64,000 nucleotides of DNA. Source: a bacterium. GTDB taxonomy: Bacteria; Hinthialibacterota; Hinthialibacteria; Hinthialibacterales; Hinthialibacteraceae. The stretch is taken from assembly GCA_963662285.2 (NCBI GenBank), contig CAXXMV010000006.1:64001-128000 (forward strand), written 5' to 3'. Shown in pieces: positions 11,165 to 32,094 of this stretch (positions are counted from its first letter, which is position 1; each line of letters opens with the position of its first letter). The notes under the pieces were generated by a model. That model worked only from the letters and a program-made list of their open reading frames with translations. It ran no database searches and was not told the origin of the DNA. The position numbers were made by a program, and so were the translations under genes.

Positions 11165-13189
11165 TTAATACAAATCCCAATTGGAAAGGCCTGTCTCTCC
11201 TCTTGTCTGGTAGACGTAAATCCGTCGTGCGTCCAGATCGGAAATAAACACAAAGGTTTCGTTTTGTGCAGTGTGCATGACAACCGCATCGGTGGGAGTT
11301 ACGAATGGACCGTTTGGAGATTCACTGCCATCCACCAGGGCCGCCGGATTTTCGGTGTCTGAAGGATTATAAAAAGCCATCACTGGTTGAGCGCCGGAAT
11401 AGTCAGGAACGATGATTTGATTGTTAACTGCATCGTACTCAATCAGCTGGCTATTAGCGCCGTAAGTTCCCGCTATTGCGCCTTGGGGAACGAAATGATT
11501 CTGAAAGTCCGAGTAACCATCCAGGTTATCGGCATTACCTCCGCTAAGTAAATTAACGCTGCCTAGCGGTTCACCCGCTTTTTGGCTGTTTCGCGAAATA
11601 TAGATATCTCCGGTATTTGGATTATAAGCCAGGTCGCGTTGATAGGTTTGGCCTCCACTAACTGCATGCAGCGATGCGCCATCCGATGAATTGAGGAATT
11701 CAACAGAATTAAAAGTGCTCACCGCAATAACTCCATCGGTTATGAAATCCACTCCATTGATACGTTTGCCGTAAGAAATGATTCCTCCCCCGAAATCAGC
11801 ATCCAATTCGAAATTAGGGGCTGGACTGAATTTACGCAAATTAGCGGTTCCGGCATTGCCTGTTTCCAAGGCGAGATAAACCGAACCATTGTTATCAACC
11901 ACGATTCCCATAAATCCACGGGAACCTGGAACATCAGTATCGGCGCCATCATCGATCATCTTATGGTTTTCCATGTTGTTGGCGTTTAGCGGATCGGCAA
12001 TGTAATAGCATCCCGTCATATTCGCTTCAGGAACAGAAAATAGCGTATAGTAAAGGCCGCCATTGGAATCAGCCGCCAAGGCCATGGGCGCTCCGGTTTC
12101 GGCCACTGTCTCAAAATCCATAACGTAGGTAAACGGATGATTAGACGTATTATCTATGGCGCCACTATCAGAATACTCACCTTCTCCACCCATCAAAAAG
12201 ACCATGATGCGGCCAGCCGCACTATCTGTAATAAAAACATAGGTTTCCCCGGCCTCATTAGTCCAGGCGACTGCATCCGAGGGACTGGAGAGTGGACCGT
12301 TTGGGGATTTGTAACCATACAAATTCATCACTGGCGCGCTTGTATCCGAAGGATTATAAAAAGCGATTGACTGGGGAGACGTCTCAAAATCAGGAATAAG
12401 AATCAAATCATTTACAGCATCATAATCAAGCAACTGGCCTTTGACTCCATAAGTTCCTCCTGATCCTCCCTGGGGAATAAAACCAGGCTGAATCTCTGCA
12501 TAACCTGATAAATCGTCCGGGGATCCACCTGCCAGCAGACTGGCGGAATTCAAGACGCCATCCACGCTCCGGTTTTTGGCTATATAAATTTCGTGCGTAT
12601 CTGGATTATATGCAACATCTCTTTGATATGTTTCTCCATCAGTTACTTCGTGAAGTATCTCACCGGTATTTGCATCTACGAATTGGATTGTGGAGAAAGT
12701 CGACACGGCTATTAGATCATCTGTGAGGATATCAACACCGGTATACCTGGCGCCGAAGATCATTCCCAAGTCAGCAAACTCATCCACCCAATCAAAGTCG
12801 GGAGCGGGACTTCGTTTTGTAATTGATGAAGTAGAATCGCTGCCGCTGTCCATTGCAAGATACACATTGCCGGAATTATCGACTGCCACGCCGACAAATC
12901 CCCGGCCTGCGGGAACGCTGGTATCATAACCGCCGTCCACCATAATATGTTCTTCCGGCGGTGGAGCGTCGAGTGGATTGGCAACATAAAAACAACCGGA
13001 AGTATCGGGATCGGGAGAGGATAACAGGGTGTAATAAATACCTCCATTTGAATCCGCTGCAATAGCTATCGGCTGTCCGAGATCTAAAGGAGTGGAAAAC
13101 TCGGTGACATATTTGAAAGATATAGGTTGAGCATAAACTCCAATAACGAGGAAAATCGACAAGAAAATACAAATTGAAATACGTTTCAT
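11165..13189 (-). CDS. Secreted tandem beta-propeller (NHL/SMP-30-like) protein with C-terminal WxL[YH] motif
   Basis: Signal peptide (VYA|Q); two ~315-aa internally duplicated halves (AADSNGGxYYT, TYQRDxAYNP, SPNGP); ends TGLSNWDLY. Confidence 0.75.
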   Translation of the reverse strand: MKRISICIFLSIFLVIGVYAQPISFKYVTEFSTPLDLGQPIAIAADSNGGIYYTLLSSPDPDTSGCFYVANPLDAPPPEEHIMVDGGYDTSVPAGRGFVGVAVDNSGNVYLAMDSGSDSTSSITKRSPAPDFDWVDEFADLGMIFGARYTGVDILTDDLIAVSTFSTIQFVDANTGEILHEVTDGETYQRDVAYNPDTHEIYIAKNRSVDGVLNSASLLAGGSPDDLSGYAEIQPGFIPQGGSGGTYGVKGQLLDYDAVNDLILIPDFETSPQSIAFYNPSDTSAPVMNLYGYKSPNGPLSSPSDAVAWTNEAGETYVFITDSAAGRIMVFLMGGEGEYSDSGAIDNTSNHPFTYVMDFETVAETGAPMALAADSNGGLYYTLFSVPEANMTGCYYIADPLNANNMENHKMIDDGADTDVPGSRGFMGIVVDNNGSVYLALETGNAGTANLRKFSPAPNFELDADFGGGIISYGKRINGVDFITDGVIAVSTFNSVEFLNSSDGASLHAVSGGQTYQRDLAYNPNTGDIYISRNSQKAGEPLGSVNLLSGGNADNLDGYSDFQNHFVPQGAIAGTYGANSQLIEYDAVNNQIIVPDYSGAQPVMAFYNPSDTENPAALVDGSESPNGPFVTPTDAVVMHTAQNETFVFISDLDARRIYVYQTRGETGLSNWDLY

Positions 13190-13355
13190 TAGTAAAAACT
13201 CCTGGATTAGTATTTGATAATCAATTCTACTCCAGTCTTATCTATTTAGAAATAGGGATATTTTTCAACCAAGAAAAAACGGCGGTTAATTTTGGTTATG
13301 TAGAAATAAGTTATTTTCAATAAGTTTGATAAGAGAATTTTATCAATTGTACGCT

Positions 13356-13515
13356 TGGGTGCCAAGGGCAGTGTATTTTCTGCCCTTGATTGTGTTCACC
13401 TGTTTTATTTCCAGAATTTCCATCAACGATCCACACGGTAGACTGAATCATAGGATTGGTTTCGTTTCGTATGGTTGTCAGTCAAGGGCAGAAAGGACAC
13501 TGCCCTTGGCACCCA
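13356..13515. repeat. REPIN-like inverted pair of CAAGGGC-type REP hairpins
   Basis: TGGGTGCCAAGGGCAGTGTATTTTCTGCCCTTGA (13356-13389) and its near-perfect reverse complement at 13482-13515. Confidence 0.8.
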
Positions 13516-13541
13516 AATATATGCGCCTGGTGATACTATCG

Positions 13542-13584
13542 AAAAAACCAACGCCCCAACCTATCAAATAGTTGGGGCGTTGGT
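13542..13584 (-). terminator. Intrinsic terminator of the BMC cassette
   Basis: ACCAACGCCCCAAC/GTTGGGGCGTTGGT stem with A-run on plus strand (U-tract on minus). Confidence 0.8.
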
Positions 13585-13603
13585 AATTTTATGTATCCAG
13601 CGT

Positions 13604-15034
13604 TTACACAAACCGCAGGGCGTTTTTGACTGCGAAGCGTTTGATCTTGCTGAAGGTTACCGGGGTGCATGGGCCTTCGCCTGTCGCGAAGGCGATGGTT
13701 AGGGCTGTATCGCCTTCTCCGCCGTTGCCCAGCGCTGTTCCGCAAGGTCCGTTGGCGACGAATAAGCCGGTGCGCATCAGTTTGGCGAATGTGGTGACGC
13801 GATCCATGCGCTGGCTGTGAATGATGGCGGTGTGACCGAAACCGTGTTCAGCTTGTTTGGAGTATTGCATCGCTTCTTCAAACGAGTTGACGCGTATAAT
13901 AGCCAAGACCGGCATCAGCATTTCGTGTTGAACGAAGGGATGGTTGCTATCCGTTTCGCAGATTAACAATTCACAGTTGTTTGGCACCTGGACTCCAACG
14001 GCCTGAGCGAGGACGGCGGCGTCTTTGCCGATGAAATCGCGGTTGACCAGGTCATCCGATGTGATAGTGGCGCGAACCAGCGCGTCGCGTTGCTGCGCAT
14101 TAAGCAGGTAGGCGCCGCGTTGTTGAATGGCTTGCATGAACTGATCATAAACCTGTGTAAGGACGAAACATTCCTTCTCGCATACGCAAGGCATGTTGTT
14201 GTCGAAGGTGGCGCCGGTATAAACGCTGTCAGCGGCGTTAGTCAAATCGGCTGTCTCATCTACGATTACCGGAGGATTGCCCGGCCCGGCTACGATAGCG
14301 CGATTGGGGCTTTGCATAGCCGCTTTAACCACAGCAGGGCCGCCAGTAGCCACTAAGAGTTCGATATCTTCATGGTTCATGATGATCTTTGCTGTGCGCA
14401 GGGTTGGTTTGCTAACCGATGTCATCAGGTTAGCCGGAGCGCCAACTGAGACTAAAGCGCGGTTGATGTCCTGCATGCTCTTCAGGGTGCATTCAACAGC
14501 GCCGGGGTGCGGCGCGAAAACAATGGCGTTGCCAGCGGAAAGCATGGCGATGGCATGGTTGATAACCGTAGCGACCGGATTGGTGGAAGGCGTAATAGTG
14601 CCGATTACGCCAAAGGGCACATACTCTTCCATCATGATTCCATTGTCACCCGTCACGCAATGCGTGGTTAGTTCCTCCATGCCGGGAGTTTTTTCAATTG
14701 CCAGACTATTTTTTAATATCTTATGATCCACCCGCCCCATGTTGGTGTCGCGCACTGTCAGTTCCGCCCATTCGCGGTTTTTCTGACGTGAGGTTTCACG
14801 GATCACTTCGATATAGTATTTGCGCTTTTCAAGTGTTATTTCGCGGAATTGATCAGAAGCGATTTTGGCTGCGCGGATAGCGTCTTCGATATCTTCGAAT
14901 ACGCCGTCGCGTCCACCGCTAACGGCGCCGCCCGCACATGCCGCCACATGACCGCTGCTGGATGGCGAACCGGTCTGCTTTTGTAATTCTTGTATAACTT
15001 TCTGAACAATTTGAGAAATTTGCTGATCATCCAT
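13604..15034 (-). CDS. CoA-acylating aldehyde dehydrogenase (EutE/PduP family) with N-terminal encapsulation peptide
   Basis: PSTNP, ATGGPAVV, GPGNPP, FDNNMPCVCEKE, ELxMP-type motif; N-terminal amphipathic helix DDQQISQIVQKVIQEL. Confidence 0.93.
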   Translation of the reverse strand: MDDQQISQIVQKVIQELQKQTGSPSSSGHVAACAGGAVSGGRDGVFEDIEDAIRAAKIASDQFREITLEKRKYYIEVIRETSRQKNREWAELTVRDTNMGRVDHKILKNSLAIEKTPGMEELTTHCVTGDNGIMMEEYVPFGVIGTITPSTNPVATVINHAIAMLSAGNAIVFAPHPGAVECTLKSMQDINRALVSVGAPANLMTSVSKPTLRTAKIIMNHEDIELLVATGGPAVVKAAMQSPNRAIVAGPGNPPVIVDETADLTNAADSVYTGATFDNNMPCVCEKECFVLTQVYDQFMQAIQQRGAYLLNAQQRDALVRATITSDDLVNRDFIGKDAAVLAQAVGVQVPNNCELLICETDSNHPFVQHEMLMPVLAIIRVNSFEEAMQYSKQAEHGFGHTAIIHSQRMDRVTTFAKLMRTGLFVANGPCGTALGNGGEGDTALTIAFATGEGPCTPVTFSKIKRFAVKNALRFV

Positions 15035-15040
15035 TATTTC

Positions 15041-15967
15041 TTATCTTCTTTCTCTGGATTGGGGAACGATGATCACTTCTATGCCCCGTTTATGCAATAA
15101 TTCCAAAGCCAGTGGGGTTATGAGTCCACCGCGCGAGGCTTTAACTACCGGGCCGCTGAGTTTGGCCGCGTCTTCTTCAGTTAATAAACAGGTAATAAGG
15201 TCTGCGCCGCTTTCCGCCCGGTTTAAGGTAACGCTGAATACTTCTTTAACGGCGTCTTCAGCAGGCATCAGTTTCATGCCCATTTTGGCCAGTTGCTCGC
15301 GGTATTTATCCAGTACATCCTGGATTCCGGGAACCTGGTTGCCGCAGACTACGCAGGCGGTTGGTTCTAATCCATCGTTAGACGCAACCACATTGGCTTT
15401 TTGAGCCAAAGCCGAAATGGTCATGTTAAGCGTCAACGAATCGGTGATGCCTAGAGCCAGTTTGGCTGCATGGGTGCGGCTGATGGATGGTATAAAGACC
15501 GACGAATAGCGCGACAGATCGTAGATGATCTCCCGCACTTCGTTTGGTTGATCTATAGTTCGTATGCCCAGCGCTTCAACCTCATCAGAAGAGATGACGT
15601 ACTGAGCGCTATTGGAGAATATGGCGTCCAGACGTACTCCTGCTGCGCGCCACTGGCGCATGGCTTCTGCCAGAACATCCCATTTTTCACGCGCTCCAGT
15701 AAAGAGAAGCAATATAGCCGGGCCGTCCAGTTTGGGTGGAGTTGGCTCGGCTGGCTTTACAAGAGGAACTTTTGCTGCGACTGAAGTTGATGAAATAGCA
15801 GGTATGCTAGGCGGAATCGGAGCGCTGCACGCTGGACCCTGGCAAGCGTTGGCGTCCAGGGTAACATTTTGATCGGGTGGTAAAGAGGCTTCTTCGGCGC
15901 GTTGACGTTCGCCAAGCGCTTTAGCGACCTCTTCAGTTATGATGCGTTCCAATTCATGAAAATCCAT
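15041..15967 (-). CDS. BMC-associated flavoprotein-like protein with encapsulation peptide
   Basis: N-terminal FHELERIITEEVAKAL helix plus Pro-rich linker; LLLFTGA...AAKLALGITDS core resembling the Flavoprotein family; C-terminal LLTEEDA...LITPLA domain. Confidence 0.7.
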   Translation of the reverse strand: MDFHELERIITEEVAKALGERQRAEEASLPPDQNVTLDANACQGPACSAPIPPSIPAISSTSVAAKVPLVKPAEPTPPKLDGPAILLLFTGAREKWDVLAEAMRQWRAAGVRLDAIFSNSAQYVISSDEVEALGIRTIDQPNEVREIIYDLSRYSSVFIPSISRTHAAKLALGITDSLTLNMTISALAQKANVVASNDGLEPTACVVCGNQVPGIQDVLDKYREQLAKMGMKLMPAEDAVKEVFSVTLNRAESGADLITCLLTEEDAAKLSGPVVKASRGGLITPLALELLHKRGIEVIIVPQSRERR

Positions 15968-16056
15968 ATCAGATTGCCGATCCAATAATATCAAATGATG
16001 TAAAACAAATTATTATTTAATGTACACTTAAATATACACTCTTAATTAATTCTCAA

Positions 16057-16752
16057 TTAAGAGATAATTTCCGCTTTTTCCCCGCCGCGAAGACCAGCGG
16101 CGTTACCGTCATCAGTGTCAAGATGCATTTCATCGAGAAAAGCCTCTCTGACCCTGAGTTGCACATCTTCAAAGACTGTCTTTTTGGCGGTTTCGATACG
16201 GACTTTAATAGTCTGGTTGTCAGTCAGTCCCCATTTTTCTGCGGATGTCGTAGATAGATGGAGATGGCGGTTGGCCTGTATGACTCCTCTTTCAAGATGA
16301 ACCACCCCTACCGGACCAGCCAGAATCAAGCGTGAACTTCCTTCATGGTTACCAGATGGTTTAACAGGGGGATCTATGCCCAAATAGATGGCGTCAGTAC
16401 GGGATACCTCAACTTGCGTTGCATCCCGCAATGGTCCAAGCACCCTTACGGCGCCCAGGCATCGCATTCGGGGGCCAATCAGAGTAACCGTCTGGTTCGC
16501 TGCAAATTCGCCGGGTTGATAGAGGCCTTTAAGCTCCTCTAACTCAAAACCCGGACCATATAGCACATCCAGGTCTTTGCGGCATAGGTGTAGATGGCGA
16601 ACCGAAACATTGACGGGAACCATTTTGCGTCCCGGTTGCTGCACTCCAAACTGAGGCGAGGCTGAGGCAGGTTGCTGCGCCTGCCGCATACGCGACACAA
16701 CGCGTTGAACCACCTGATCAACCAAAGAGTTGTCGATGAAGGAATCCACCAT
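16057..16752 (-). CDS. pduL: Phosphate acyltransferase PduL (PTAC) with encapsulation peptide
   Basis: SVRHLHL, QPGEFA, VRVLGPLR, TQVEVSRTD, RHLH, MHLDTDDGNAA. Confidence 0.95.
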   Translation of the reverse strand: MVDSFIDNSLVDQVVQRVVSRMRQAQQPASASPQFGVQQPGRKMVPVNVSVRHLHLCRKDLDVLYGPGFELEELKGLYQPGEFAANQTVTLIGPRMRCLGAVRVLGPLRDATQVEVSRTDAIYLGIDPPVKPSGNHEGSSRLILAGPVGVVHLERGVIQANRHLHLSTTSAEKWGLTDNQTIKVRIETAKKTVFEDVQLRVREAFLDEMHLDTDDGNAAGLRGGEKAEIIS

Positions 16753-16768
16753 CGTTTTTTAGTCCTAT

Positions 16769-16801
16769 AAAAACCAAGCGTGGCTTCTGGCCACGCTTGG
16801 T
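16769..16801 (-). terminator. Intra-operon terminator or stabilising hairpin after the BMC-H gene
   Basis: Minus strand ACCAAGCGTGGC-CAGAA-GCCACGCTTGGT-TTTT. Confidence 0.7.
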
Positions 16802-16865
16802 GGAATCGTCCGCTTGAAATGCAGAATGACGCTGCTTGTGACAATCCAGAGATAAAGCGTGCGCC

Positions 16866-17159
16866 TTATCCGTTTACAGGAAGAATTCCTTCGATGTCTG
16901 AATGAGGCCGGGGAATAACGTGAACCGAAACCACTTCACCCACTTTGCGGGCGGCGGCGGCTCCAGCGTCTGTAGCTGCTTTGACGGCGCCTACATCACC
17001 TCTTACCATAACTGTTACGTATCCGCCTCCGATTTTTTCTTTACCAACCAGAGTTACGCTTGCGGCTTTGACCATGGCGTCGGCTGCTTCTACAGCGCCA
17101 ACTAATCCACGAGTTTCAACAAGTCCCAGGGCTTTACCTTCCACGGGTTTGTCCTCCAT
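16866..17159 (-). CDS. BMC hexamer shell protein (PduA/EutM-like)
   Basis: [35 protein letters not shown]. Confidence 0.97.
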
Positions 17160-17444
17160 TTTTAATGTTGAACGTTCTAAAGGATCATACTTTATTAATA
17201 TATCGCAAATCCCTTATACGCTTTAAGTTCATCAATTCTTATGTATAAGCCTAATAAATTCATACAATCCTGTCAAGCCAGTGATGTTCTATCCATTGTT
17301 AATATTTTATGCGTCAAGTACAAATACTTGATTTTTGAATGCAGTTCAAGGAATTTTACTCGCTTGTGATCATATTCAGTCATCTAATAAGCCCAATTTT
17401 TATTGATTTCATTTTTGAATGAATATTCTATTATTCGGATTATT

Positions 17445-18314
17445 CTATATTTTTTCAAAAGTAGTCTTACGGATGGCCAGTTGGAATGGAGCGTCTTGCA
17501 ATGATGGAAAACGATCCATTTGCATATCGAACTTATCAAGCAACTTTTCATCGAGAGTTGTTTGATCCTTGCAGGCAGCTAAGGGGTCATCATAATCTAA
17601 ATGCATGATAGAACTGCTCTGCTCATCCATAGTGAAGATATAGTGCAGGATGCTGGTTCTATTATCTATGGGTAGTTTAGTTTTCATGTCGATGGGGATT
17701 TCCAGGGTGATATCCTCCATTAAACCTTCACGTTCCGGGCGGTACTGACGATGAAGGAAAAGGCAGGCGGCCACTTTGTTTTCGACTTTATGATCGTATA
17801 TATAAGTTTGGCATTCGGGGAACAGTTCAATAAAGCGCTGAGCCTTTGGATTGCGTAATGCCAGCGAGCGTATTTTGGTGGGCCTAATGCGTTCTGACGC
17901 CTGCTTTTTAGCCCAGCGGTTATAGGTCATGGGCGTCAAGGCCAGGGGGATTAAGAGCGTTACAAGCGCCGTTCCCGGATAGGCGATTAATAATCGAATT
18001 GGCATACTACAAAACATTGGCAGTATCACCAAACTCAACAAGAAGGCTTCTATGATATGAAGCCCGAACAGGGCGCCGGTCAGTTTGATCAGCAGTCTTT
18101 GATATCCTTGAGAGATTTCTTCTTGATTGATTCTTGATTTTAAGAACCAATATAATAGCCCGAACCAATAGAAACTGATCATCATTTCCGTCAGCCAAAA
18201 AGGGAAAACCCAGGTCGGCTCCCCGCCCAGTGAACTGGAAAGAAACATCATGCAGGCGAATGTCAGTAAGATTGAGATAACAGTAAAGAGAAAACAGCCG
18301 ATCAACATTGTCAC
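17445..18314 (-). CDS. Hypothetical membrane protein (4 TM + soluble C-terminal domain), paralogue of 18646-19506
   Basis: Hydrophobic N-half; shares AxxFIxxFPxCxTY, CLFxHR, EDxxxEIPxDM, RFPSLxxAPFxLAxR with its neighbour. Confidence 0.75.
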   Translation of the reverse strand: MTMLIGCFLFTVISILLTFACMMFLSSSLGGEPTWVFPFWLTEMMISFYWFGLLYWFLKSRINQEEISQGYQRLLIKLTGALFGLHIIEAFLLSLVILPMFCSMPIRLLIAYPGTALVTLLIPLALTPMTYNRWAKKQASERIRPTKIRSLALRNPKAQRFIELFPECQTYIYDHKVENKVAACLFLHRQYRPEREGLMEDITLEIPIDMKTKLPIDNRTSILHYIFTMDEQSSSIMHLDYDDPLAACKDQTTLDEKLLDKFDMQMDRFPSLQDAPFQLAIRKTTFEKI

Positions 18315-18511
18315 CCTCGTTGAGCGTGTAGTATATAGGTTATCCTGGAAACGGCGGTCGCTTTATACGATGTCTATTATAAGTCGCTTGCAATCAGTAT
18401 GATAACATATAACGATTCAATTAAATATCACATCAAAAGGTTAACTCGATATTGTTGGATATTCTTATACGAAGATTGCCATTATCAACCCTCTTCAAAC
18501 AAAATATCCGG

Positions 18512-18626
18512 TTATATCTCAAAACCCCTCTCCCCCAAGCCTGGGGTCATTCACAAGAGGGGGTTGTTATCAAAAACCAGAGAATTGCCAATTGACGTTA
18601 AAAATATAATTGAATTGTCGTTTTTA
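18512..18626 (-). repeat. ~114-bp dispersed repeat (family 2), copy 2
   Basis: Reverse complement aligns to 10627-10740. Confidence 0.8.
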
Positions 18627-18645
18627 TGGTTGTTGATAAATCCTT

Positions 18646-19506: not shown

Positions 19507-19509
19507 AAT

Positions 19510-20376: not shown

Positions 20377-21681
20377 ATGCCCCAACAGGAAAATGGATTG
20401 CCCCAATTACAGCAGCAAATGATGAAGCCCTTATCTAATGTACTGGTCAAACCGACCAGCGCTGATTGCAACCTGGAATGCGGATACTGCTTCTATTTAG
20501 AAAAATCCGAACTCTATCCCGAATCGCGCATCCACCGCATGTCGGATGAAGTGATGGATGAGATGGTTCGCCAGCTGATGCAGGCCGGACAAGCATCAGT
20601 CTCTTTTGGCTGGCAGGGCGGCGAACCGACTCTGATGGGCGTTGATTTCTACCGTAAAGCCGTCGCCGCCCAGCAGAAATATGGCCTGCCCGGTCAGACG
20701 GTGGGCAATGGCTTCCAAACCAATGGCGTTTTGATAGATGAAGAATGGTGCGACTTGCTGAGAGAATATAATTTCCTCATCGGGCTATCCATCGACGGAC
20801 CGGAGCATGTTCATGATAAATACCGCTTGACGGCTGGCGGGCGTCCATCCTGGCGAAAAGTGTATGACAGCGCAAAGTTGATGCTTAAATCTGACGTGGC
20901 GGTTAACAGTCTGGTGGTGGTTAATGATTATTCCGTGCTTTATGCTGAAGAGATATATACTTTCCTCAGAGACGCCGGTTTCGAGTTTTTGCAATTCATT
21001 CCTTGCGTGGAACCTGATCCTAATGATCGATCCAAAGTAGCGCCATTTTCGGTCAGCCCTGAACAATACGGCGAATTTCTCTGTAAGATTTTCGATTGCT
21101 GGAAAAAAGATTTCGTTGATGGACGCCCTAGAATATCGGTGCGTTTTTTCGATTCGGTTTTCCATACTTATGTGGGTTTCATGCCGCCGGAATGCACCCT
21201 TCTGGAAGAGTGCGGCTGTTATGTCGTCATCGAACATAACGGAGACGTCTATTCCTGCGATTTCTTTGTTGAACCGAAATGGAAACTTGGCAATGTCATG
21301 ACTGGCAATCTGCTTGAAATGCTCAATAGCCCCAGGCAGAATGAGTTTGGGCGGGTCAAAAGCCAGTTGCCTCAAAAATGCGTAGCATGTAAATACCTGC
21401 TGCATTGCCGGGGAGGATGCCCCAAAGACCGCATTAATAATCCCCAATCCGGCGGCTTGGATCATTTCTGTACATCACATTTGATGTTCTTCGAGCACGC
21501 CGATGCCGACCTGAAAGCCTTGGCTGAAGATTGGATGACTGAGCAGCAACAATACGCAGAAGAGTCGAATCGAAGACTGGAAGAACTTACCACAAAAACA
21601 GAGCAAGCCAGGGTTGGGCGTAATGAACCATGCCCCTGCGGCAGCGGAAAGAAATTCAAAAAATGTTGTGGTCGCGCGTAA
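20377..21681 (+). CDS. Anaerobic sulfatase maturase (radical SAM/SPASM) with C-terminal SEC-C motif
   Basis: CNLECGYC, WQGGEPTL, QTNG, SPASM cysteines (CxxC..C.GGCPK), GRNEPCPCGSGKKFKKCC. Confidence 0.92.
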   Translation: MPQQENGLPQLQQQMMKPLSNVLVKPTSADCNLECGYCFYLEKSELYPESRIHRMSDEVMDEMVRQLMQAGQASVSFGWQGGEPTLMGVDFYRKAVAAQQKYGLPGQTVGNGFQTNGVLIDEEWCDLLREYNFLIGLSIDGPEHVHDKYRLTAGGRPSWRKVYDSAKLMLKSDVAVNSLVVVNDYSVLYAEEIYTFLRDAGFEFLQFIPCVEPDPNDRSKVAPFSVSPEQYGEFLCKIFDCWKKDFVDGRPRISVRFFDSVFHTYVGFMPPECTLLEECGCYVVIEHNGDVYSCDFFVEPKWKLGNVMTGNLLEMLNSPRQNEFGRVKSQLPQKCVACKYLLHCRGGCPKDRINNPQSGGLDHFCTSHLMFFEHADADLKALAEDWMTEQQQYAEESNRRLEELTTKTEQARVGRNEPCPCGSGKKFKKCCGRA

Positions 21682-23335: not shown

Positions 23336-23381
23336 GTGCTAATGTTATGCAGGGGAGGTAAAGAAGTAATAACAAAATATT

Positions 23382-24446
23382 TTAATGTAGTTCCCAATTT
23401 AAGCCGGAAGGAACAACAGCTGCCGGTTCATTAACGTAAATACCGAACAAGTGCCCGATATTAATGTTCCAGGCTAAACCGTCAACGTTACAGTCAACGA
23501 CCATATCTTGTAATTCGAGAACATCGCCTGATTTTTCATACCAATAAATCTGACTCCAATTGCCGCCTTCTTCGTTGGTTTTAAAGAAATCAAGATTTTC
23601 ATCGCCATCTATATCCCCACAGGTTAATGCTTCTGAACCTCCACCTGTAGGCGTCGAATGTACGGTATTTAGGGATGTGGAGAACACGCCAGGTTCGGTT
23701 TGTTCGATTATGTTAATGCTGGATACGGTGGGATCACTTCCATAAAACACTTGAGCAATGGCATAATCGATATCGCCATCGCCATCATAATCACAGGCTG
23801 TAACTCCAGCTACTCCGCCAAAACCGGGAAATGTTCCGCTCCAGTTTAGTAGTTTGGAATAGACCAGCGTTGGGTTATCTTCCAAAGTTAAAGTTCCGTC
23901 AGCATTTACTGTAAGTACGCCGTCATAAACTTCGCACATATTGCTGACAGGACCGGCGGCATCGTTGTCCTCAATCCAGACCATGTGAACTTCATCGCCA
24001 ATTGCGTAAAGATCCAAGCCAAGGGGGCTGACATCGGCGGGAGTAGTATAGATTGGATCTTGTACAATGGCCCAAAAACCGTTTTCATCCATTTTCCGAT
24101 GTTGGAACTGAGTTCCCAGGCTGGGAAAATGCGATTCGCCTTTTGAAACAGCGATAACGGCGCTAACTTCGCCATTGATTTCAAGCATGGACATACCCAT
24201 ATCGAAGACTCTGCCACTGTATTCTTCTCCCTGATAAAAGGGTAATTCCAGAGGCTGTTCCAGAGCATCCCAGTAGTTGTTTTCTATATCATAAGTCCAT
24301 TCGATAATAGAATAACCATACTCTGGTCCATAAGAATCGAATTCAACCGTCCAGAGATTAAATCCATTCACCACGCCTTCCACCGCAAACGATGAAACGC
24401 TTGCTATTCCAATAAATAGCGCTACCCAAAAGATTTGTTTTTTCAT
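23382..24446 (-). CDS. Secreted FG-GAP/VCBS-repeat protein with C-terminal WxL[YH] motif
   Basis: Signal peptide (SFA|V); DYDGDGDID and DIDGDENLD Ca-binding loops; ends PSGLNWELH. Confidence 0.75.
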   Translation of the reverse strand: MKKQIFWVALFIGIASVSSFAVEGVVNGFNLWTVEFDSYGPEYGYSIIEWTYDIENNYWDALEQPLELPFYQGEEYSGRVFDMGMSMLEINGEVSAVIAVSKGESHFPSLGTQFQHRKMDENGFWAIVQDPIYTTPADVSPLGLDLYAIGDEVHMVWIEDNDAAGPVSNMCEVYDGVLTVNADGTLTLEDNPTLVYSKLLNWSGTFPGFGGVAGVTACDYDGDGDIDYAIAQVFYGSDPTVSSINIIEQTEPGVFSTSLNTVHSTPTGGGSEALTCGDIDGDENLDFFKTNEEGGNWSQIYWYEKSGDVLELQDMVVDCNVDGLAWNINIGHLFGIYVNEPAAVVPSGLNWELH

Positions 24447-24635
24447 GATCTTAATATATCCCTTTCTTCCAAAAAAAATTATTTATGCCGGAAAATTATA
24501 TCGCTCTAATCCGGGCATTACATTAAACCAGTCTAACAAATGAGCCTCTGTTGTCTATCAGGATAATTCCCCAATTTTGCTATGGAAAATACCTGTATTG
24601 CATAATTAATATGTTATCGTCACCCTGTATGCAGT

Positions 24636-25295: not shown

Positions 25296-25495
25296 ATATA
25301 ACGTATATCCAGTCTGAGTGTGCAATGCATATTAATTATACGAGTTACTTTTCTAATATACCAAAGACAAGATTAGATGCTGAATCTCTGTTATATTTTC
25401 TATGTATTTCTAAATATAACCAATAAGGGAAAGTGCCTATTTTTCAGGAAAAAAATAACTGGATTGCTTTTATCTTAAAAAAATCAACCATTTAG

Positions 25496-28400
25496 TCACG
25501 AATTGTCGGCATTGCAAGGCATTTCGATTATAACTTGGGTTCCCTTTTCTTTTTGAGAGCGGCACTCAAAGGTTCCCCCCAGGTATTCGATACGCTCGCG
25601 AATATTGAAAAGGCCGAAACTTTTCTGGCTGCTGGCCGTTTCATGCATGTTTTGCATAGGGAAGCCGGCTCCCTTGTCTTCAACGCTGAGGCGGACATTG
25701 TCATTTTTTCTTTGAATGCGAACTTGAGCGTGTAACGTTTCCGCATGTTTGATTACATTAAAGAGTAATTCCCTGATGGAGCGGAACAAGATGCCGCGTG
25801 CATCTTCACTCAATTCTTTTGGCTGGCCGTCATCAATAAAATCAATCTTAACTTGATATTGGTCTTCCATTTGTTCAATCAACCACTCTAAAGCCGCTTC
25901 TAATCCGATTTCATACAAAATAGGCGGACTGATTTCGAAAGTCAAAGTCCGGGTATCCTGGATAGTTTGTTCCAGTACTTGCAAGGTTCGATTTAGCAGT
26001 TGCGCCGGGTAAGTTTCAAGAGGTTCTTGAAGTATGGTTTCGATCTGCATCTGACAAGCCGCCAAACCATGCCCGATCCGATCATGCAACTCTGCGGCGA
26101 TCTGCTTGCGGTCGCGTTCTTCAACCAGAGTGATTTCTGAAGCGAATGATTGCAACTGTTTTTGATATATCAGTAACCTTTGGTGAACCTCCTGGAGATC
26201 GTAGGTGCGTACTTTGACCAGTTTTTCTAAATTTAGATGCCGCGATACAGCGAAAGCCAAGGCCATAACCGTAATCACGCCGCCAAGCGATAGCAGCATC
26301 AAGACTATCGGTTCTCTATACCATGGGAGTTGAACCGTGAAACTAAACGAAGCGACGGCAGAAGATTGATTCCAGTTTCGATCCATGCTTCTGACCGAGA
26401 ATTTATGAGATCCTGGAGGTAGATTTGTATAATTCGCTACAGTATCGCCAGTAAACGGAGACCACTCTCCATGATCGATTCTATGGGAGAATAACAGGCG
26501 GTTTTGAGGCGTATATTTCCATTTATCGATGCCGGAAAAGACGAATTTAGCGGATCCATTGACCGAGACGGTGTCACTATTGTCGTTTGGATTGAGGAAA
26601 ACAAGAGGGGGATCGGAATCGGCTTCCTTATTGTATAGATTCAATCCAAGCGATGTGGCGGCCCACAAACGCTCTTGACTGTCTTCAAAAACATTAAAAA
26701 CACAGAAGGAAGACAAGCCCTCTTCCACAGAGTTTTCGATCCAGGAATTGCCATCGTAGCGGTATAATCCGTTCCAGGTAGATATCCATACTGATCTATC
26801 TTTTCTGCGAATCATTGAGGGTACGCCATCAATATTAGTACGAATCGTAGACCACTTTTTCCCATCATATTCGTAAATCGAGTTACGGTCGGAAAACCAA
26901 AGTCGCTTGTCGTCATAGGGGAAAATGCACATGACTGAATCGCCGGGGTATTCGTCGCCCAGAGTTGTGTATTCGCCATCCCGAAAAACTCCTAACCGCT
27001 CTTCCGCCATTCCTCCCAACCACACGTTTGCGTTGGAATCCTCATATATATAACGTAATTGCTCTATGTTCCATTGATCGCCAAGGTCAGCGAATAATTT
27101 GAAATTTGAGCCATCGAATATTTCAAGGCTATAAATAAATTTATGACGAGTGGAGGTGACGTTCTCGCATTGCACCCAGATTGTTCCATCGGACCGGGGA
27201 AAAATCAGACTGACTTTCCTTCCATCCGGATGTTCTACAACATCAAACCGTTCGTTATCGGGATCGAAAAGCAGCAGAACATTGTTCATATTACGAATAA
27301 CAAGTTTCCCATTTTTAAGATAGGCCAATCCGTTGGGTTCCCATTGATAGGTGCTGAAGCCGGACGGTAAGGGATATTGTTTCCATGTTTCATCTTGATT
27401 GAGAATGAGTTTATTAAATGTGGTAAACCAGAGACGTTCATGGGGATCTTCGCAAATTGCGGTTATGTGTTCTGATAGATCAATCAAGGCTCTGGGTGAA
27501 TTCCATGTCGAGACTGCATAGCGTGCAATCCCAGGTGACAGGCTGATCCAGAATGAACGATTGGATTCATATAAGATGGGAAATCCCTGCTCCAGAACCG
27601 GTAACTGGATGCTGGTTAAAGATGGGAGGGGAACATCCATCTCAAAACGATTACTGGCCGGACCGGAAAGGAATGTCAATTTCGGATAGTAGGCGGATGT
27701 TTTCCAAAGCCAGAAACCTTCTTCAGCGCTGGGCCAACCTGCAGCGATGGATTGTTTATCAATGCATTTCAATGACCAAGAGCCTTGGTGAAATTGAACT
27801 AAAATCCGCTTTGACGTACTTTTGGATATAACGGATATATAAAAAATTCCGGCATCATCTTCCATGATTGTGCCAGGATAGGCTGCATCCAGTTCATTGG
27901 GAATCAGATACTCTGTCCATAACGCCCCAACTGCCGAATCCCGCCCTTTCATATCCAGTTTCGCGATTCCCCACTGGCCAATAGTAAAGATATCACCCTT
28001 TCGAGACATAACGACGTTAGTGAAATCGCCCAATTTTGTATCGCCAGAAGAACGAATATGAGTAAGCTGGTTAGTCTCTGCGTCAAATTCGGCCAGGAAC
28101 TCTGGAAGACATATAATAACGTGGTTAAGGGTTGTAGGAATAATGGATGCTTTGGAAAAATCAATCTCTGTAATGGGGAAAGAAATCCAAATCCCGTTAT
28201 CAAATCTCTTCAATCCTTTTAAGTCAAACGACCAAAGTTGATTAGAGCAGTTTTCAAAGATTTGTTTCCATACCCCCGGTGATGGAATGCGCGTTACTGA
28301 GTATCCATCCAGGCAACTAATTTGATTGACGGAGCCATGGCGTATCCAGATTCTCCCTTCATTGCCTCGTTGACATAAGCCGCATGTTTCCCGTAAATTA

Positions 28401-28966
28401 TCCTCCGTGGTCCAGTAACGCCAGTGACCATTTTGCCGCGCAGGAATTTTATGGGTTTGAGGAGAAAGAAATCTGTCTCCCAGGATAATCCGATCATTAA
28501 TCTTACCGTCAAATACGGCTGTATCACTGGCGTCTGAAGTGGGATGAAGCGTGTAGGTCAATTCAGTATAATCGTCCATGCCTTGAATGAGCCAGAATAA
28601 GACGTCTTTCCGTATTCTACCGTTTTGACCAATCTGATCGACCTTCCAGCCCGCTGGAATAATTTCCGTAACGCTAACCGGCTTATCACGGTTGGACGTA
28701 CTATCGATTTTCAGCGTCACCTGAACCGGGTCGTTTGAATAAAATGGAGTTGAAAACTCACGCTTTGCAACCGGGCCGGATTCACTGTTAGCAGTGTTAG
28801 TAGTGTTGGATTGAAAAGGCATCTGAGCTGTAAGATGGCATGGATTAACGCAATATGAGATGCATAAAGCAAACAGATATATCCTGCATCTATGCGTCTG
28901 ATTCCATAAGCGGGTGCATAGAGCGAGTATGAATATTTTTTTACGCATAATACAATACAGGATCAT
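25496..28966 (-). CDS. Sensor histidine kinase: Ig-like + beta-propeller + Y_Y_Y + HisKA_3 + HATPase
   Basis: EDxxxRLW propeller repeats, YTNLPPGSHKFSVRSMD (Y_Y_Y), TM, ERDRKQIAAELHD, ELLFNVIKHA, DKGAGF, GLFNIRER; start uncertain. Confidence 0.9.
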   Translation of the reverse strand: MILYCIMRKKIFILALCTRLWNQTHRCRIYLFALCISYCVNPCHLTAQMPFQSNTTNTANSESGPVAKREFSTPFYSNDPVQVTLKIDSTSNRDKPVSVTEIIPAGWKVDQIGQNGRIRKDVLFWLIQGMDDYTELTYTLHPTSDASDTAVFDGKINDRIILGDRFLSPQTHKIPARQNGHWRYWTTEDNLRETCGLCQRGNEGRIWIRHGSVNQISCLDGYSVTRIPSPGVWKQIFENCSNQLWSFDLKGLKRFDNGIWISFPITEIDFSKASIIPTTLNHVIICLPEFLAEFDAETNQLTHIRSSGDTKLGDFTNVVMSRKGDIFTIGQWGIAKLDMKGRDSAVGALWTEYLIPNELDAAYPGTIMEDDAGIFYISVISKSTSKRILVQFHQGSWSLKCIDKQSIAAGWPSAEEGFWLWKTSAYYPKLTFLSGPASNRFEMDVPLPSLTSIQLPVLEQGFPILYESNRSFWISLSPGIARYAVSTWNSPRALIDLSEHITAICEDPHERLWFTTFNKLILNQDETWKQYPLPSGFSTYQWEPNGLAYLKNGKLVIRNMNNVLLLFDPDNERFDVVEHPDGRKVSLIFPRSDGTIWVQCENVTSTRHKFIYSLEIFDGSNFKLFADLGDQWNIEQLRYIYEDSNANVWLGGMAEERLGVFRDGEYTTLGDEYPGDSVMCIFPYDDKRLWFSDRNSIYEYDGKKWSTIRTNIDGVPSMIRRKDRSVWISTWNGLYRYDGNSWIENSVEEGLSSFCVFNVFEDSQERLWAATSLGLNLYNKEADSDPPLVFLNPNDNSDTVSVNGSAKFVFSGIDKWKYTPQNRLLFSHRIDHGEWSPFTGDTVANYTNLPPGSHKFSVRSMDRNWNQSSAVASFSFTVQLPWYREPIVLMLLSLGGVITVMALAFAVSRHLNLEKLVKVRTYDLQEVHQRLLIYQKQLQSFASEITLVEERDRKQIAAELHDRIGHGLAACQMQIETILQEPLETYPAQLLNRTLQVLEQTIQDTRTLTFEISPPILYEIGLEAALEWLIEQMEDQYQVKIDFIDDGQPKELSEDARGILFRSIRELLFNVIKHAETLHAQVRIQRKNDNVRLSVEDKGAGFPMQNMHETASSQKSFGLFNIRERIEYLGGTFECRSQKEKGTQVIIEMPCNADNS

Positions 28967-29117
28967 TCATAGGCTGGTTTATTCTCAGTATTGGGATTCT
29001 TTCATAAATGGTTACGCCTAGTCAACCTGCTTCATCGGAAAAAACCTAGTCATGATATACAAATTTTGATATTATTAAATATTATTTATCTATTTAATAA
29101 ACCTATCAGGAGAAATC

Positions 29118-30029
29118 ATGAAGCAACTATTCGCTATTACTACGGCATTTCTACTTACGTGTCTCTTCATTTTCATCATTCCCACTCAAGCATCAGCTGT
29201 TGAAGATGATATTGTTTTCATTCATCATTCTTGTGGAAATAACTTTCTTAACCAGGGACTCAAAACTCAGTTATTAGCCAAAGATTACATCGACGAAGTG
29301 AACGATATCTACTACGGCGACGATTTGCAACCCGACGATGGGCGTCCCGATTCCTTGGGCGGGACTCCAGGCGATAACACCAATATGAACCATTGGGTAA
29401 TGTGGTTCAATGATTATCTATCTGGAATACAAACATTCGATTGCAGCAACGGCAGCAACCGGATCATCATGTTTAAGAGCTGCTACCCCATCAGTAATAT
29501 ATCCAGCGATGGACGCGAGCCGGGCGACCCTTTCAGTTCTTCGCAAACAATGGCCAATTATAAGAGCGTTTTCCGCAAGTATAACGATGCAGATGGCGTA
29601 TATACCCGCAGCGGCAATGATTATAATCCGTTGGAGCAGGTATTCGCTCAAAATCCAGATATCCTGTTTATCGCCGTGACCGCTCCTCCGCGTCATTTCG
29701 GACCTTCCGATGCTACCAATGATACGGAGGCGCAACGGGCGCGTAATTTCAATAATTGGCTGAAAAACGAATGGCTGGATGGTTATAGGGCTTCTATTAT
29801 AGGGCAGATGAATGTGGCCGTATTTGACTGGTTTGATGTCTTGGCTTATCCAAGCGATCATGCCGTTCATCCAAACCGTCTTAAAGAAGAATACGGCGGA
29901 GCTAATGGCGATTCGCACCCTAATTCGACCGCTAACAGTGAATCAGCAGAGGTTTTTTCGACATTAATTGATCAAGCATACACAGAATGGATCGAAATTA
30001 CATCGGTTAAAAACTGGAGTCTTTATTAG
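29118..30029 (+). CDS. Secreted SGNH-like hypothetical protein with C-terminal WxL[YH] motif
   Basis: Signal peptide (ASA|V); IVFIHHSCG and GDSHPN motifs; ends ITSVKNWSLY. Confidence 0.65.
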   Translation: MKQLFAITTAFLLTCLFIFIIPTQASAVEDDIVFIHHSCGNNFLNQGLKTQLLAKDYIDEVNDIYYGDDLQPDDGRPDSLGGTPGDNTNMNHWVMWFNDYLSGIQTFDCSNGSNRIIMFKSCYPISNISSDGREPGDPFSSSQTMANYKSVFRKYNDADGVYTRSGNDYNPLEQVFAQNPDILFIAVTAPPRHFGPSDATNDTEAQRARNFNNWLKNEWLDGYRASIIGQMNVAVFDWFDVLAYPSDHAVHPNRLKEEYGGANGDSHPNSTANSESAEVFSTLIDQAYTEWIEITSVKNWSLY

Positions 30030-30045
30030 AGTTAGGTGTTTATTT

Positions 30046-30080
30046 AGTCAGGAATGGGGGGGGGAATATCCTGATTTTTT
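30046..30080 (+). terminator. Probable terminator with poly-G loop
   Basis: TCAGGA...G9...TCCTGA-TTTTTT. Confidence 0.5.
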
Positions 30081-30200
30081 AACATAATTGTCTGATAGCC
30101 CTAAATGAGTATATTGTGTAATTGTTTTAATATATTTATTTTATGAATGTGATCGGATAATGGTTGTACCCCCCCCCCATCTAAATAATCGATCTAACAG

Positions 30201-30230
30201 TAGACAAGAGGAATTCTAATATTTTATAAT
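30201..30230 (+). promoter_or_regulatory. Putative sigma70 promoter of 30382-32094
   Basis: TAGACA-18 nt-TATAAT. Confidence 0.5.
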
Positions 30231-30381
30231 AGTTAACGTTAATTTTATGTTTACCAGAAATTTAAATTTGAAAGGAGGGATTAAATTATTAGATAATTGA
30301 GTGAAATAGAGTAAAAAATATCGATGATTCAAATTTTAATAACATCTGAATAATTTCGCAGAACTCTTAGGGGAGGTTTCA

Positions 30382-32094
30382 ATGAGAAAAAGTTTAGTAT
30401 TAGCAGGATTACTATGTTTAATTGTCGCTCCTGCATTTGCGCAGGTAGGTATTTTCGACAAAACAGTGGATTGGTTTTCACCTGATGCCCCGCGTGGAAC
30501 CATGAAGGTTGAAGGCAGCGCGTCTTTTGCGGATGGAGTCTACTCCCTCGAAGGCAACGGAGATGACATTTGGAACGCGGACGATGAAGGATTTTTCGTC
30601 TACACAGAAAAATCCGGCAGCATGAGTCTTTCAGCCCGTGTTTCATGGATTGATCCAGGCGGAAACGATGAGGCTAAAATTGGCGTCATGATTCGTGAAA
30701 AACCCGAAGATCCTTCGTCACGGTATTTTTGGATAGAATTGCGCGGTGCGGATTGGGGTGACCAGGTTAGCAATCAAATGCGTCTCTCCGAAGGCGGCTC
30801 AGCGACAAGCCCGGCTGGTGCTATAATGGATCCGGATGGGATTCAGGTTGAAGCTCTTGCAGAAGGCATTTTTCTACGTGTAACCCGTGTTGCTGATATG
30901 GGTCTGTTCGTCGCCGAAGTATCCTATGAAGGTAATGACTGGTTTATCGCCGATAGCGTAACAATCCCAGATTGGGGTGACACTGCCGCCTATGGTATAG
31001 CTATCACCAATCACGATGACAACGATGTCCTCGCCTATGGCCAAGCCGATAATGTGGTTCTCGGACCACCTCCGGCATTGCCTACATTTGCAATCCGTAA
31101 ATTCTCATCCAACAGTTTTAAGAATGGAGACACGGTCGAAGTTACGATCAGCATTACGAATCCAAATGAGGATGCACCGACTGTATCAGTCTCAGATACA
31201 GCTCCGCAAGGCTGGACCATCAGCGACATCAGCAGCGGCGGCGCCGCATCAGGGCAAACCATTTCATGGAGCGCATCCGCGCCTCATGGCATCACAACAT
31301 TAACCTATAAAGTGACTGCTACAACAGCTGGTGAAGTAAATCTCTTTACGGGAACCCTCGGTTCCGATGCAATTGGAGGCGGTGCTTCAATAGCGAAAAT
31401 CCAGGACGCCCCTGAAGGCGACCAGATATTCGACCAGCACGCCGATATTTTTGACGATCCCGCGAACGTTGGAACCGACGCAGACGGCAATGCCCTCCTC
31501 GGATCGGCTAGCTACGATGCAACAACAAACACCTATGAAATCCAGGGCGGCGGACTCGATATCTGGAATAACGCCGATCAGTTCCATTTCCTTTACACCA
31601 CGGTTTCCGGTGATTTTGTCATGGAATGCAATATGGAACATGACGAAAGCGAACGCAGCACCAGTACCGACGAATGGATAAAAGGGATGATGATGGGCCG
31701 CCAGAATCTGACAGCCGGTTCACCTAACTTTGGCACCCGCTGCCGCCGCGACGGCCAGTACAGTTGGCAAATGCGCGCCCTTCAGGATGGCGCCAGCAGC
31801 AGCGACAGCAACAACCGCGTGACCTTCACAACCGAAGGATATGCGGAAGATGAATTCCCGCGCCAGAGACTGGTAAGAGAAGGCGACGAATGGAGCATCT
31901 TCTTCCGCGACGACCTTGGAGATGGCGAGTGGATTCAAGTTCAATCCACCCAAACCCTGGTTATGGAAGATCCGATCCTGGTTGGTTTGGCGGTTACCGC
32001 TCACCAGGTTGGTTCCGTGCAGTTCACCTGGTTCCGTGATGTTACTCTCGAAACAACCGGTCCAGTTTCCGTCTCTCATTGGGAACTGCATTAA
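30382..32094 (+). CDS. Secreted protein: two ConA/DUF1349-like domains flanking a DUF11-like Ig domain, C-terminal WxL[YH] motif
   Basis: Signal peptide (AFA|Q); duplicated GxGxDIWNxxD...GxMxR...GxAxT[AN]H; central VEVTISITN..VSDTAPQGW; ends PVSVSHWELH. Confidence 0.75.
   Translation: MRKSLVLAGLLCLIVAPAFAQVGIFDKTVDWFSPDAPRGTMKVEGSASFADGVYSLEGNGDDIWNADDEGFFVYTEKSGSMSLSARVSWIDPGGNDEAKIGVMIREKPEDPSSRYFWIELRGADWGDQVSNQMRLSEGGSATSPAGAIMDPDGIQVEALAEGIFLRVTRVADMGLFVAEVSYEGNDWFIADSVTIPDWGDTAAYGIAITNHDDNDVLAYGQADNVVLGPPPALPTFAIRKFSSNSFKNGDTVEVTISITNPNEDAPTVSVSDTAPQGWTISDISSGGAASGQTISWSASAPHGITTLTYKVTATTAGEVNLFTGTLGSDAIGGGASIAKIQDAPEGDQIFDQHADIFDDPANVGTDADGNALLGSASYDATTNTYEIQGGGLDIWNNADQFHFLYTTVSGDFVMECNMEHDESERSTSTDEWIKGMMMGRQNLTAGSPNFGTRCRRDGQYSWQMRALQDGASSSDSNNRVTFTTEGYAEDEFPRQRLVREGDEWSIFFRDDLGDGEWIQVQSTQTLVMEDPILVGLAVTAHQVGSVQFTWFRDVTLETTGPVSVSHWELH

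Follow-up and report, generated by a model that had tools for sequence, protein, structure and literature searches.

A short C-terminal tail on exported proteins of Hinthialibacterota and Sumerlaeota, a candidate address tag

C-terminal tags have led before to new envelope machinery, namely the sortases, the exosortases, rhombosortase, myxosortase, and the type IX secretion system (T9SS). According to the available part of PMC11980579, known C-terminal sorting signals have a tripartite architecture and the prokaryotic ones are all cleaved, while GlyGly-CTERM and MYXO-CTERM proteins rely on type II secretion (the T2SS) to reach the surface. We present here a tail of another architecture, with nine flexible residues, no helix, and no domain. 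It ends four exported proteins encoded in a 64,000-nucleotide stretch (the window) of GenBank assembly GCA_963662285.2 (contig CAXXMV010000006.1, positions 64,001 to 128,000 of the forward strand), from a bacterium of the Hinthialibacteraceae in the phylum Hinthialibacterota. We lean toward reading it as a short C-terminal address tag that would send exported proteins to the cell surface or exterior or hold them there.

Each of the four open reading frames (ORFs; Table 1) was re-read and ends in its tail directly before the stop, exactly as the original prediction, made from the sequence alone, had claimed. Only these 4 of the 50 genes called in or touching the window have the tail, and it is absent from two proteins that look exported, at 47501-48916 and 57415-60444, as was also predicted. 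The assembly containing the window (G000; 7.29 Mb in 8 contigs, 92.5% complete) yielded, in a mechanical call of the whole genome, 11,847 ORFs of at least 80 amino acids (aa), or 5,421 genes once overlapping ORFs were removed. The motif W-x-L-[YHF] ends 81 of the 11,847 ORFs, compared with 2.0 expected from its internal rate (466 in 2,800,617 positions). The 40-fold excess is confined to the exact C-terminus: at offset 1 from the end the motif is found in 20 ORFs, and at offsets 2 to 11 in 0 to 4 each, which excludes chance. When all three-letter patterns in the last five residues were counted without bias, W patterns came out on top, at ~200-fold over expectation. The relaxed form W-x-[LIVMF]-[YHFW] ends 135 ORFs; 40 more have it with one extra residue, some of them spurious short ORFs. 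In a logo of the 135, W (135) at position -4 is preceded by T at -9 (85), V or I at -7 (120), and D, N, or E at -5 (88), and followed by L, I, or M at -2 (124) and Y, F, or H at -1 (133). The fuller tail is T-x-[VI]-x-[DNE]-W-x-[LIM]-[YFH], at times plus one mostly polar residue; the predicted consensus is corrected to this form. Non-overlapping genes with the tail number 164 (relaxed) or 147 (strict) of the 5,421, so the tail is not limited to the four genes in the window.

The 147 strict tail proteins form 77 single-linkage BLAST families. A signal-peptide test, which is a crude and lenient heuristic, was passed by 123 of the 147 versus 1632 of 4455 other proteins (comparison proteins of at least 150 aa; odds ratio 8.9, p 1e-30), and most of the 24 tail proteins that failed it show a signal peptide by eye. 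As predicted, the tail marks a subset of Sec-exported, otherwise unrelated proteins; it is not equally frequent in cytoplasmic ones. A lipobox is present in only 3 of the 123 signal-peptide-positive tail proteins. Pfam scanning of 51 further tail proteins (E <= 1e-5) found domains in 27 and none in 24. These domains include CBM9, CotH with lamin-tail (LTD), LamG, WD40 and FG-GAP propellers, beta-helix/PD40/TIG giants, a multihaem cytochrome, an S9-type hydrolase, a tyrosine phosphatase, and periplasmic-binding-protein domains. By a rough cleavage rule, Gln is the commonest residue after the predicted site in tail proteins (25/123, versus 89/1632 in the others), with A-x-A before the cut and Q after it as the typical context. 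N-terminal Gln is a pyroglutamate site in the T9SS cargo of Bacteroidota.

AlphaFold models were obtained for two of the window proteins. In the model of the 570-aa protein (33-sequence alignment; predicted local distance difference test [pLDDT] 91.1), the final strand stops at residue 558, and the mean pLDDT over residues 561-570 is 46. In that of the 303-aa protein (whole-model pLDDT 87.9), confidence falls to 63 over residues 291-300 and 48 over residues 301-303. Confidence drops over the tail in both models, so in neither fold does the tail form a buried strand, a possibility that the original prediction had raised against itself. Among natural proteins, Foldseek matched the 303-aa model best to carbohydrate esterase 7toh and to acylhydrolases (E 2e-5 to 1e-4, TM ~0.43). 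In the 570-aa (DUF1349) family, the tail is found in 30 of the 34 closest listed proteins, query and forms with one extra residue (+1) included, with P0002, P0004, P0022, and P0034 as the exceptions; some of the tail-bearing homologues are named Candidatus Hinthialibacter by their source. The tail is missing from all 35 listed hits of greater distance (P0035-P0069), which come from other lineages. W567 of the 570-aa protein is among the 13 invariant columns of the 33-homologue alignment (mean column identity 27%), and the tail W is likewise invariant in a second family, across 23 aligned homologues (51%). The 674-aa protein keeps a W-x-[LIV] tail in 13/13 homologues fetched from other genomes of the phylum, and the 354-aa protein keeps a W-x-[LI] tail in 12/13 homologous loci; at these loci, from other genera, overall identity is 42-67% and the linkers ahead of the tail vary, yet the tail is retained. 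The tail is a strongly selected, appended, flexible module. That it is no signal at all, but caps the structure in a lineage-specific way or follows from sequence context at gene ends, has nothing in its favor beyond the absence of a known reader and is close to refuted by the counts, as it accounts for neither an excess at the exact C-terminus only, the confinement to exported proteins, the 77 unrelated families, the flexibility in two models, nor the conservation next to varying linkers.

A swap of C-terminal modules among homologues is our best indication that the tail serves in sorting, anchoring, or docking. The family of the 303-aa SGNH-like protein is widespread, and the protein's 120 best listed homologues have a conserved catalytic part followed by differing C-terminal modules, the ends of which were classed (Table 1). 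Judged from these sequences, the tail takes up a slot in which other lineages have sorting or anchoring modules, in keeping with the type of role originally predicted. Tail-less homologues (P0076-P0111) of a 602-aa tail protein (L077:638-2446), three of them named Verrucomicrobia by their source, carry a ~75-aa C-terminal domain ending in ..RFYRLR; it has no Pfam or NCBIfam match and may represent a further C-terminal sorting domain not yet described. Of the 120 homologues of the 303-aa protein, 15 (within P0152-P0246), mostly DUF11-bearing, share a second short ending that recurs, ..[YH]LP[LV][VI][LQ]K.., placed shortly before the stop, and a similar ..YFPLVYKE ends one protein labeled Anaerolineales.

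The content of this slot also bears on whether the tail is a ligand for periplasmic quality control, in which a PDZ protease or chaperone would read the aromatic C-terminus and tune stability or turnover rather than location. DegS reads the C-termini of outer-membrane proteins (OMPs), Prc reads non-polar ends, and aromatic or hydrophobic free C-termini resemble PDZ ligands, as do the last residues of the tail; some cargo of the binding-protein type would moreover be expected to stay periplasmic. We nevertheless find this reading quite improbable: the slot in other lineages holds sorting or anchoring modules, not degrons, ends that are non-aromatic or have one more residue are tolerated, and an outer-membrane-type protein of G000 (with a below-full-length Pfam DcaP match) has an ordinary ..LMYKF end.

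The lineage range of the tail was determined by counting the DNA pattern V-x-[DENK]-W-x-[LIMVF]-[YF]-stop against a reversed control pattern. G000 has 63 hits versus 1 control, and 33 of the phylum's 35 genomes show a clear excess. The other two, G001 (1 versus 0 control) and G027 (2 versus 2), come from two other families and are at control level, with no excess of the +1 form either. A stricter pattern scanned over 185,579 species genomes gave 53 loci, 49 of which lie at the ends of long ORFs and are labeled Hinthialibacteria OLB16 (2), Omnitrophota in metagenome-assembled genomes (10), Sumerlaeota (6), UBP4 (1), or "bacterium" (30). The remaining 4 hits (Armatimonadota, Thermodesulfatator, Kapaibacterium, and Faecousia) were rejected as chance in short frames, with 1-3 hits versus 1-3 control in a recount with the broad pattern. 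The same recount gave 9-17 hits versus 0-1 control in four Sumerlaeota genomes and 10 versus 1 in the UBP4 genome. Among 75 Sumerlaeota genomes, an excess is clear in 43 and ambiguous in 5; the other 27 yield 0-2 hits each. One low-count Sumerlaeota genome has 5 hits of the +1 form versus 0 control, and another encodes a homologue of the 303-aa protein ending in ..RRHWSLYE. The DNA pattern therefore undercounts variant tails, and the low-count genomes were dropped as a tail-negative contrast set. The tag spans at least two candidate phyla plus one UBP4-titled genome, in clade-specific dialects.

Table 1. Coordinates of the tail proteins, their tails, and related features, and C-terminal ends among the listed homologues of the 303-aa protein. 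Positions are those of the window unless a contig or locus is given.
Feature	Location or occurrence	Strand	Basis or remarks
Exported protein, 674 aa, two beta-propeller-like halves	11165..13189	-	ORF and signal-peptide-like start; Pfam SBBP, NHL, MRJP-like repeats
Tail TGLSNWDLY of 674-aa protein	11168..11194	-	Stop codon at 11165-11167
Exported FG-GAP-repeat protein, 354 aa, tail at end	23382..24446	-	ORF, Pfam
Tail PSGLNWELH of 354-aa protein	23385..23411	-	One-residue-shorter variant, L at -6 replacing V/I at -7
Exported SGNH/GDSL-hydrolase-like protein, 303 aa, candidate carbohydrate esterase	29118..30029	+	ORF, AlphaFold, Foldseek
Tail TSVKNWSLY of 303-aa protein	30000..30026	+	Stop directly after
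Exported protein, 570 aa, DUF1349-type concanavalin-like domains and DUF11	30382..32094	+	ORF, Pfam; PF07081 precomputed on homologues
Tail VSVSHWELH of 570-aa protein	32065..32091	+	Stop directly after; flexible in model
Pseudopilin-like gene, N-terminus ..QAFTLIELLIVV..	41639..42322	+	Family enriched beside tail genes; not adjacent to tail gene in window
Complete T2SS cluster L001	G000 contig 6, 872000-890000		GspE, F, H, J, K, L, M, 266-aa GspC-like protein, secretin, 642-aa protein
Long secretin, 975 aa, N0 and six Secretin_N domains	L001:5288-8215	-	T2SS cluster, G000 contig 6
W tail end	10/120 listed homologues of 303-aa protein		
PEP-CTERM- or PGF-CTERM-like end	11/120 listed homologues of 303-aa protein		Motif, transmembrane helix, basic cluster
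T9SS C-terminal domain	6/120 listed homologues of 303-aa protein		PF18962
Dockerin	3/120 listed homologues of 303-aa protein		
..LPLVLK.. ending	15/120 listed homologues of 303-aa protein		
PF18998-repeat end	5/120 listed homologues of 303-aa protein		
Other transmembrane helix and basic end	3/120 listed homologues of 303-aa protein		
..YR[LIV].. end	2/120 listed homologues of 303-aa protein		
None of the classed ends	65/120 listed homologues of 303-aa protein		

We propose that the N-terminal signal peptides would direct these proteins through Sec across the inner membrane, that the proteins would fold in the periplasm, and that the flexible nine- to ten-residue tail (T-x-V-x-[DNE]-W-x-L-Y) would project from the last domain. 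A component of the envelope would then read the tail, and the protein would be routed to the cell surface or exterior or retained there. The tag would thus do the job of T9SS C-terminal domains, PEP-CTERM signals, or dockerins in other lineages. Of the originally predicted tag read by a dedicated outer-membrane machine, the C-terminal tag is supported; our search identified no reader for it.

T9SS was rejected as the reader. A genome-wide profile search of G000 found 0 matches to its C-terminal domain, which is also missing from the four window proteins (E up to 1) and the 51 further tail proteins (E <= 1e-5). SprA (TIGR04189) likewise had 0 matches in G000, a result to be taken as "not found" rather than as absence, as 14 control genomes were equally without a match. 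Of the 75 Sumerlaeota genomes, 10 have a match to the C-terminal domain, at most one weak match each. The link to a T9SS linker at which the original prediction had hinted is thus unsupported. PEP-CTERM-like ends (regex for motif, transmembrane helix, and basic end) are present in 0/5166 G000 proteins, and no sortase, exosortase, rhombosortase, or myxosortase turned up, no search aimed at such families having been made. This bears on a reading of the tail as a processing site, at which a sortase-like transpeptidase or protease would cut off the last 4-5 residues after D/N/E and attach the protein to lipid, glycan, or wall. The residue before W is indeed D, N, or E in 88/135 tails, and Asx-specific ligases take a short hydrophobic C-terminal leaving group, which the D/N/E-W tail resembles. 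We regard processing as improbable, however: G, S, or H also occurs before W (26/135), there is no transmembrane helix to keep the substrate at a membrane enzyme, no candidate enzyme turned up, and conservation reaches five residues upstream of the presumed cut. The cleavage of all known prokaryotic C-terminal sorting signals, as given in the available part of PMC11980579, would be in its favor.

The most likely route would be one of several pseudopilin-driven (type II secretion-like) machines of the lineage. Signal peptides on the tail proteins and a T2SS in the genome, as with type II substrates, make T2SS-dependent export a candidate on sequence grounds. G000 has eight secretin matches, one annotated full T2SS cluster (Table 1), and two T2SS-like clusters by gene order. 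The 975-aa secretin of the full cluster has full-length orthologues in the tail-bearing families (f1, 19/19 genomes; f2, 2/2; f3, 4/4; f6, 6/7), the single f6 genome without one being 68% complete. No orthologue was found in the tail-less G001 and G027, where orthologues of another T2SS secretin, used as a control, are present. The UBP4 genome has a T2SS cluster similar to L001. In the f6 (OLB16-like) family, the secretins matching the 975-aa one are found within open frames 1,636 to 3,966 aa long, in which N-domain matches recur; these may be giant secretin fusions. The 642-aa protein beside the secretin was set aside as an uninformative reader candidate: in a single-sequence query it was found in f1 (19/19) and weakly in f3 (4/4), with none in f2, f4, f5, or f6. 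It has no Pfam or NCBIfam match, and its Atlas features lead to DUF3352-like clusters, mostly from Acidobacteriota, with a recognition value just under the tool's mark.

G000 also contains ~122 pseudopilin-like genes of ~200 aa with a near-identical N-terminus of GspG type, GFTLIELLIVVAIIGILAAIAVPNF. They adjoin 22 of the 147 tail genes, versus 6.2 +/- 2.6 for random gene sets, mostly on the same strand and with short gaps. In an unbiased clustering of the 501 genes within two positions of tail genes, they were the only enriched family (26 versus 10.2 expected, p 5e-6). The 602-aa tail gene is followed by a pilin-like gene in syntenic order in 8 genomes, with the tail kept in all; no match to an orthologue of the 602-aa protein was found in G001, G027, G036, G047, or G043. 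In a small Sumerlaeota sample, a pilin-like gene lies directly upstream in 3 of 20 targeted tail loci, versus ~0.6 expected from ~65 pilin-like genes per genome. A complex prediction for the 602-aa protein (24-602) and the pilin-like protein (33-215), run without controls, scored 0.00 (mark 0.32) and speaks neither for nor against binding. Pseudopilin-like matches per genome range from 33 to at least ~89 in the 35 genomes of the phylum, the count being a lower bound in 26 of them. First-look candidates reach 268 per genome in the phylum and number 25-168 in all 75 Sumerlaeota genomes.

A more speculative reading, to which we give a low probability, would make the tail a linear and transferable signal, the first of its kind, for pseudopilin-driven (type II-like) transport, acting either in loading folded proteins onto the machine, and so through the secretin, or in clipping them onto short fibers that the 100-plus pseudopilin-like paralogues would form. 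Hinthialibacterota, Sumerlaeota, and relatives would then display enzymes and binding proteins by a new route and perhaps reel in captured substrates. If the reader is a type II-like machine, the tail would explain how such machines recognize their substrates, a long-standing question, and a portable export or display tag would be gained.

The same gene neighborhoods, enriched in two phyla, would also suit a docking peptide, which we rate as unlikely. The outer membrane would be crossed independently of the tail, which would then hold the protein non-covalently on a surface receptor, be it a pseudopilin-built fiber, an outer-membrane protein, a scaffold, or a glycan, as a nine-residue analogue of dockerin-cohesin. 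Dockerins do fill the slot of the tail in 3/120 listed homologues of the 303-aa protein, and the cargo consists mostly of binding or degrading modules (CBM9, LamG, CotH with LTD, binding proteins, multihaem cytochrome). Tail proteins are rarely lipoproteins (3/123) and would therefore need other means of staying on the cell. No receptor was found, however; the tail is uniform whereas heads differ from one pseudopilin-like paralogue to another, and pilin-like genes are expanded in tail-less genomes as well.

Several observations weigh against an address tag or against its proposed reader. A search for the reader among T9SS, T2SS, and pseudopilin neighbors identified none, and T2SS substrates are not known to carry a linear signal. 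The co-occurrence of the 975-aa secretin with the tail rests on two tail-less genomes, G001 and G027, which may stand for a single evolutionary event or for two. In four Sumerlaeota genomes rich in the tail, no recognizable orthologue of this secretin or its GspK is present, and in two of these four the best secretin matches lie in PilMNOPQ-type clusters. The long-secretin T2SS thus tracks the tail within the phylum, fails to do so in Sumerlaeota, and is therefore kept only as a lead. Pseudopilin-like genes are equally expanded in genomes without or low in the tail, so their presence does not track it, and T2SSK-type genes occur in tail-rich and tail-poor genomes alike; neither family discriminates as a marker of the reader. 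About 1 tail in 6 carries an extra residue, and in the 354-aa family the final aromatic residue is often replaced, the end varying between Y, F, Q, and M/L/R/F plus 1-3 more residues, so the position of the free C-terminal carboxylate is not fixed. Periplasmic-binding-protein types, which normally work in the periplasm, make up 3 of the 51 scanned tail proteins.

Whatever its reader, the motif provides a practical annotation rule. The tag is on ~3% of genes in uncultured lineages with many genes for polysaccharide degradation, and it would predict an extracytoplasmic, probably surface-associated proteome, half of it without a Pfam domain.

Other features were noted in the same genome. In the window, a row of genes at 13604-17159 (- strand) resembles, by eye, a bacterial microcompartment module, with genes resembling those for aldehyde dehydrogenase (13604-15034) and PduL (16057-16752) and a small ORF of shell-like appearance (16866-17159); near it lies a radical SAM gene (20377-21681) that, also by eye, is anaerobic sulfatase-maturase-like. 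Proteins ending in ..THRFF number 11-12 in G000, with one copy at window 62316-62717 (- strand), and are probably copies of one insertion-sequence ORF and no signal. Six of the genome's seven TonB-dependent receptor matches form one tandem cluster on contig 6 (1100838-1112782).

No model in Pfam or NCBIfam matches the tail, a point on which the original prediction had asked for a library check. The literature on Hinthialibacter/OLB16, Sumerlaeota, and C-terminal sorting, with subscription journals and supplements outside its scope, yielded no description of the tail, and no paper was found that joins type II secretion with a linear C-terminal secretion signal. The available part of PMC9324843 (Hinthialibacter) does not mention secretion, C-terminal, sorting, type II, or T9SS, and that of PMC8092238 (Sumerlaea) holds nothing on such a tail. 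Papers pairing C-terminal sorting with partial phylogenetic profiling all concern, in their available parts, MYXO-CTERM-type signals.

The known signals do not fit, as had been predicted; the tail is too short and lacks a transmembrane helix, a basic tail, or a domain. It resembles the signals of the LPXTG/sortase, PEP-CTERM/exosortase, PGF-CTERM/archaeosortase, GlyGly-CTERM/rhombosortase, and MYXO-CTERM/myxosortase systems in being a lineage-restricted C-terminal signature. Like these tripartite signals, it is found on dozens to hundreds of unrelated Sec-exported proteins per genome, after a linker and in the same slot of homologues. Unlike them, it has neither a transmembrane helix nor a basic cluster, and the protein ends 3-4 residues past W. 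The T9SS type A C-terminal domain (TIGR04183/PF18962) likewise labels signal-peptide-bearing proteins that bind or degrade glycans, but it is a folded domain of ~70-100 residues, whereas the tail has 9-10 flexible residues. The dockerin-cohesin system (PF00404) shares with the tail its many tagged enzymes and binding proteins per genome. A dockerin, however, is a calcium-binding duplicated loop-helix module of ~60-70 residues with a known partner fold, and the 4 window and 51 further tail proteins have no dockerin Pfam match. Nor do these proteins match the WxL domain of Gram-positive surface proteins, which spans ~150-200 residues with two WxL motifs; they have a single W-x-L, inside the nine-residue tail.

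The OMP beta-signal is read by the BAM complex, and a YxF end is read by DegS. The tail shares with the beta-signal an aromatic extreme C-terminus and hydrophobic positions just before it, but its cargo consists of soluble folds (propellers, lectin-like sandwiches, and SGNH-like alpha/beta), and it has no alternating hydrophobic residues up to the end. Type I secretion uses a C-terminal signal on substrates without an N-terminal signal peptide, unlike the tail proteins, of which 123/147 are signal-peptide-positive. In eukaryotes, the peroxisomal targeting signal 1 (PTS1; -SKL) is read by the TPR domain of Pex5. PTS1, too, is a linear C-terminal tag of very few residues that stays uncleaved on folded proteins and shows some tolerance at its last positions; coming from a different domain of life and a different compartment, it serves as an analogy only. 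Set beside these systems, the tail is best read as a genuine lineage-restricted tag and a new architectural variant of a sorting or docking signal.

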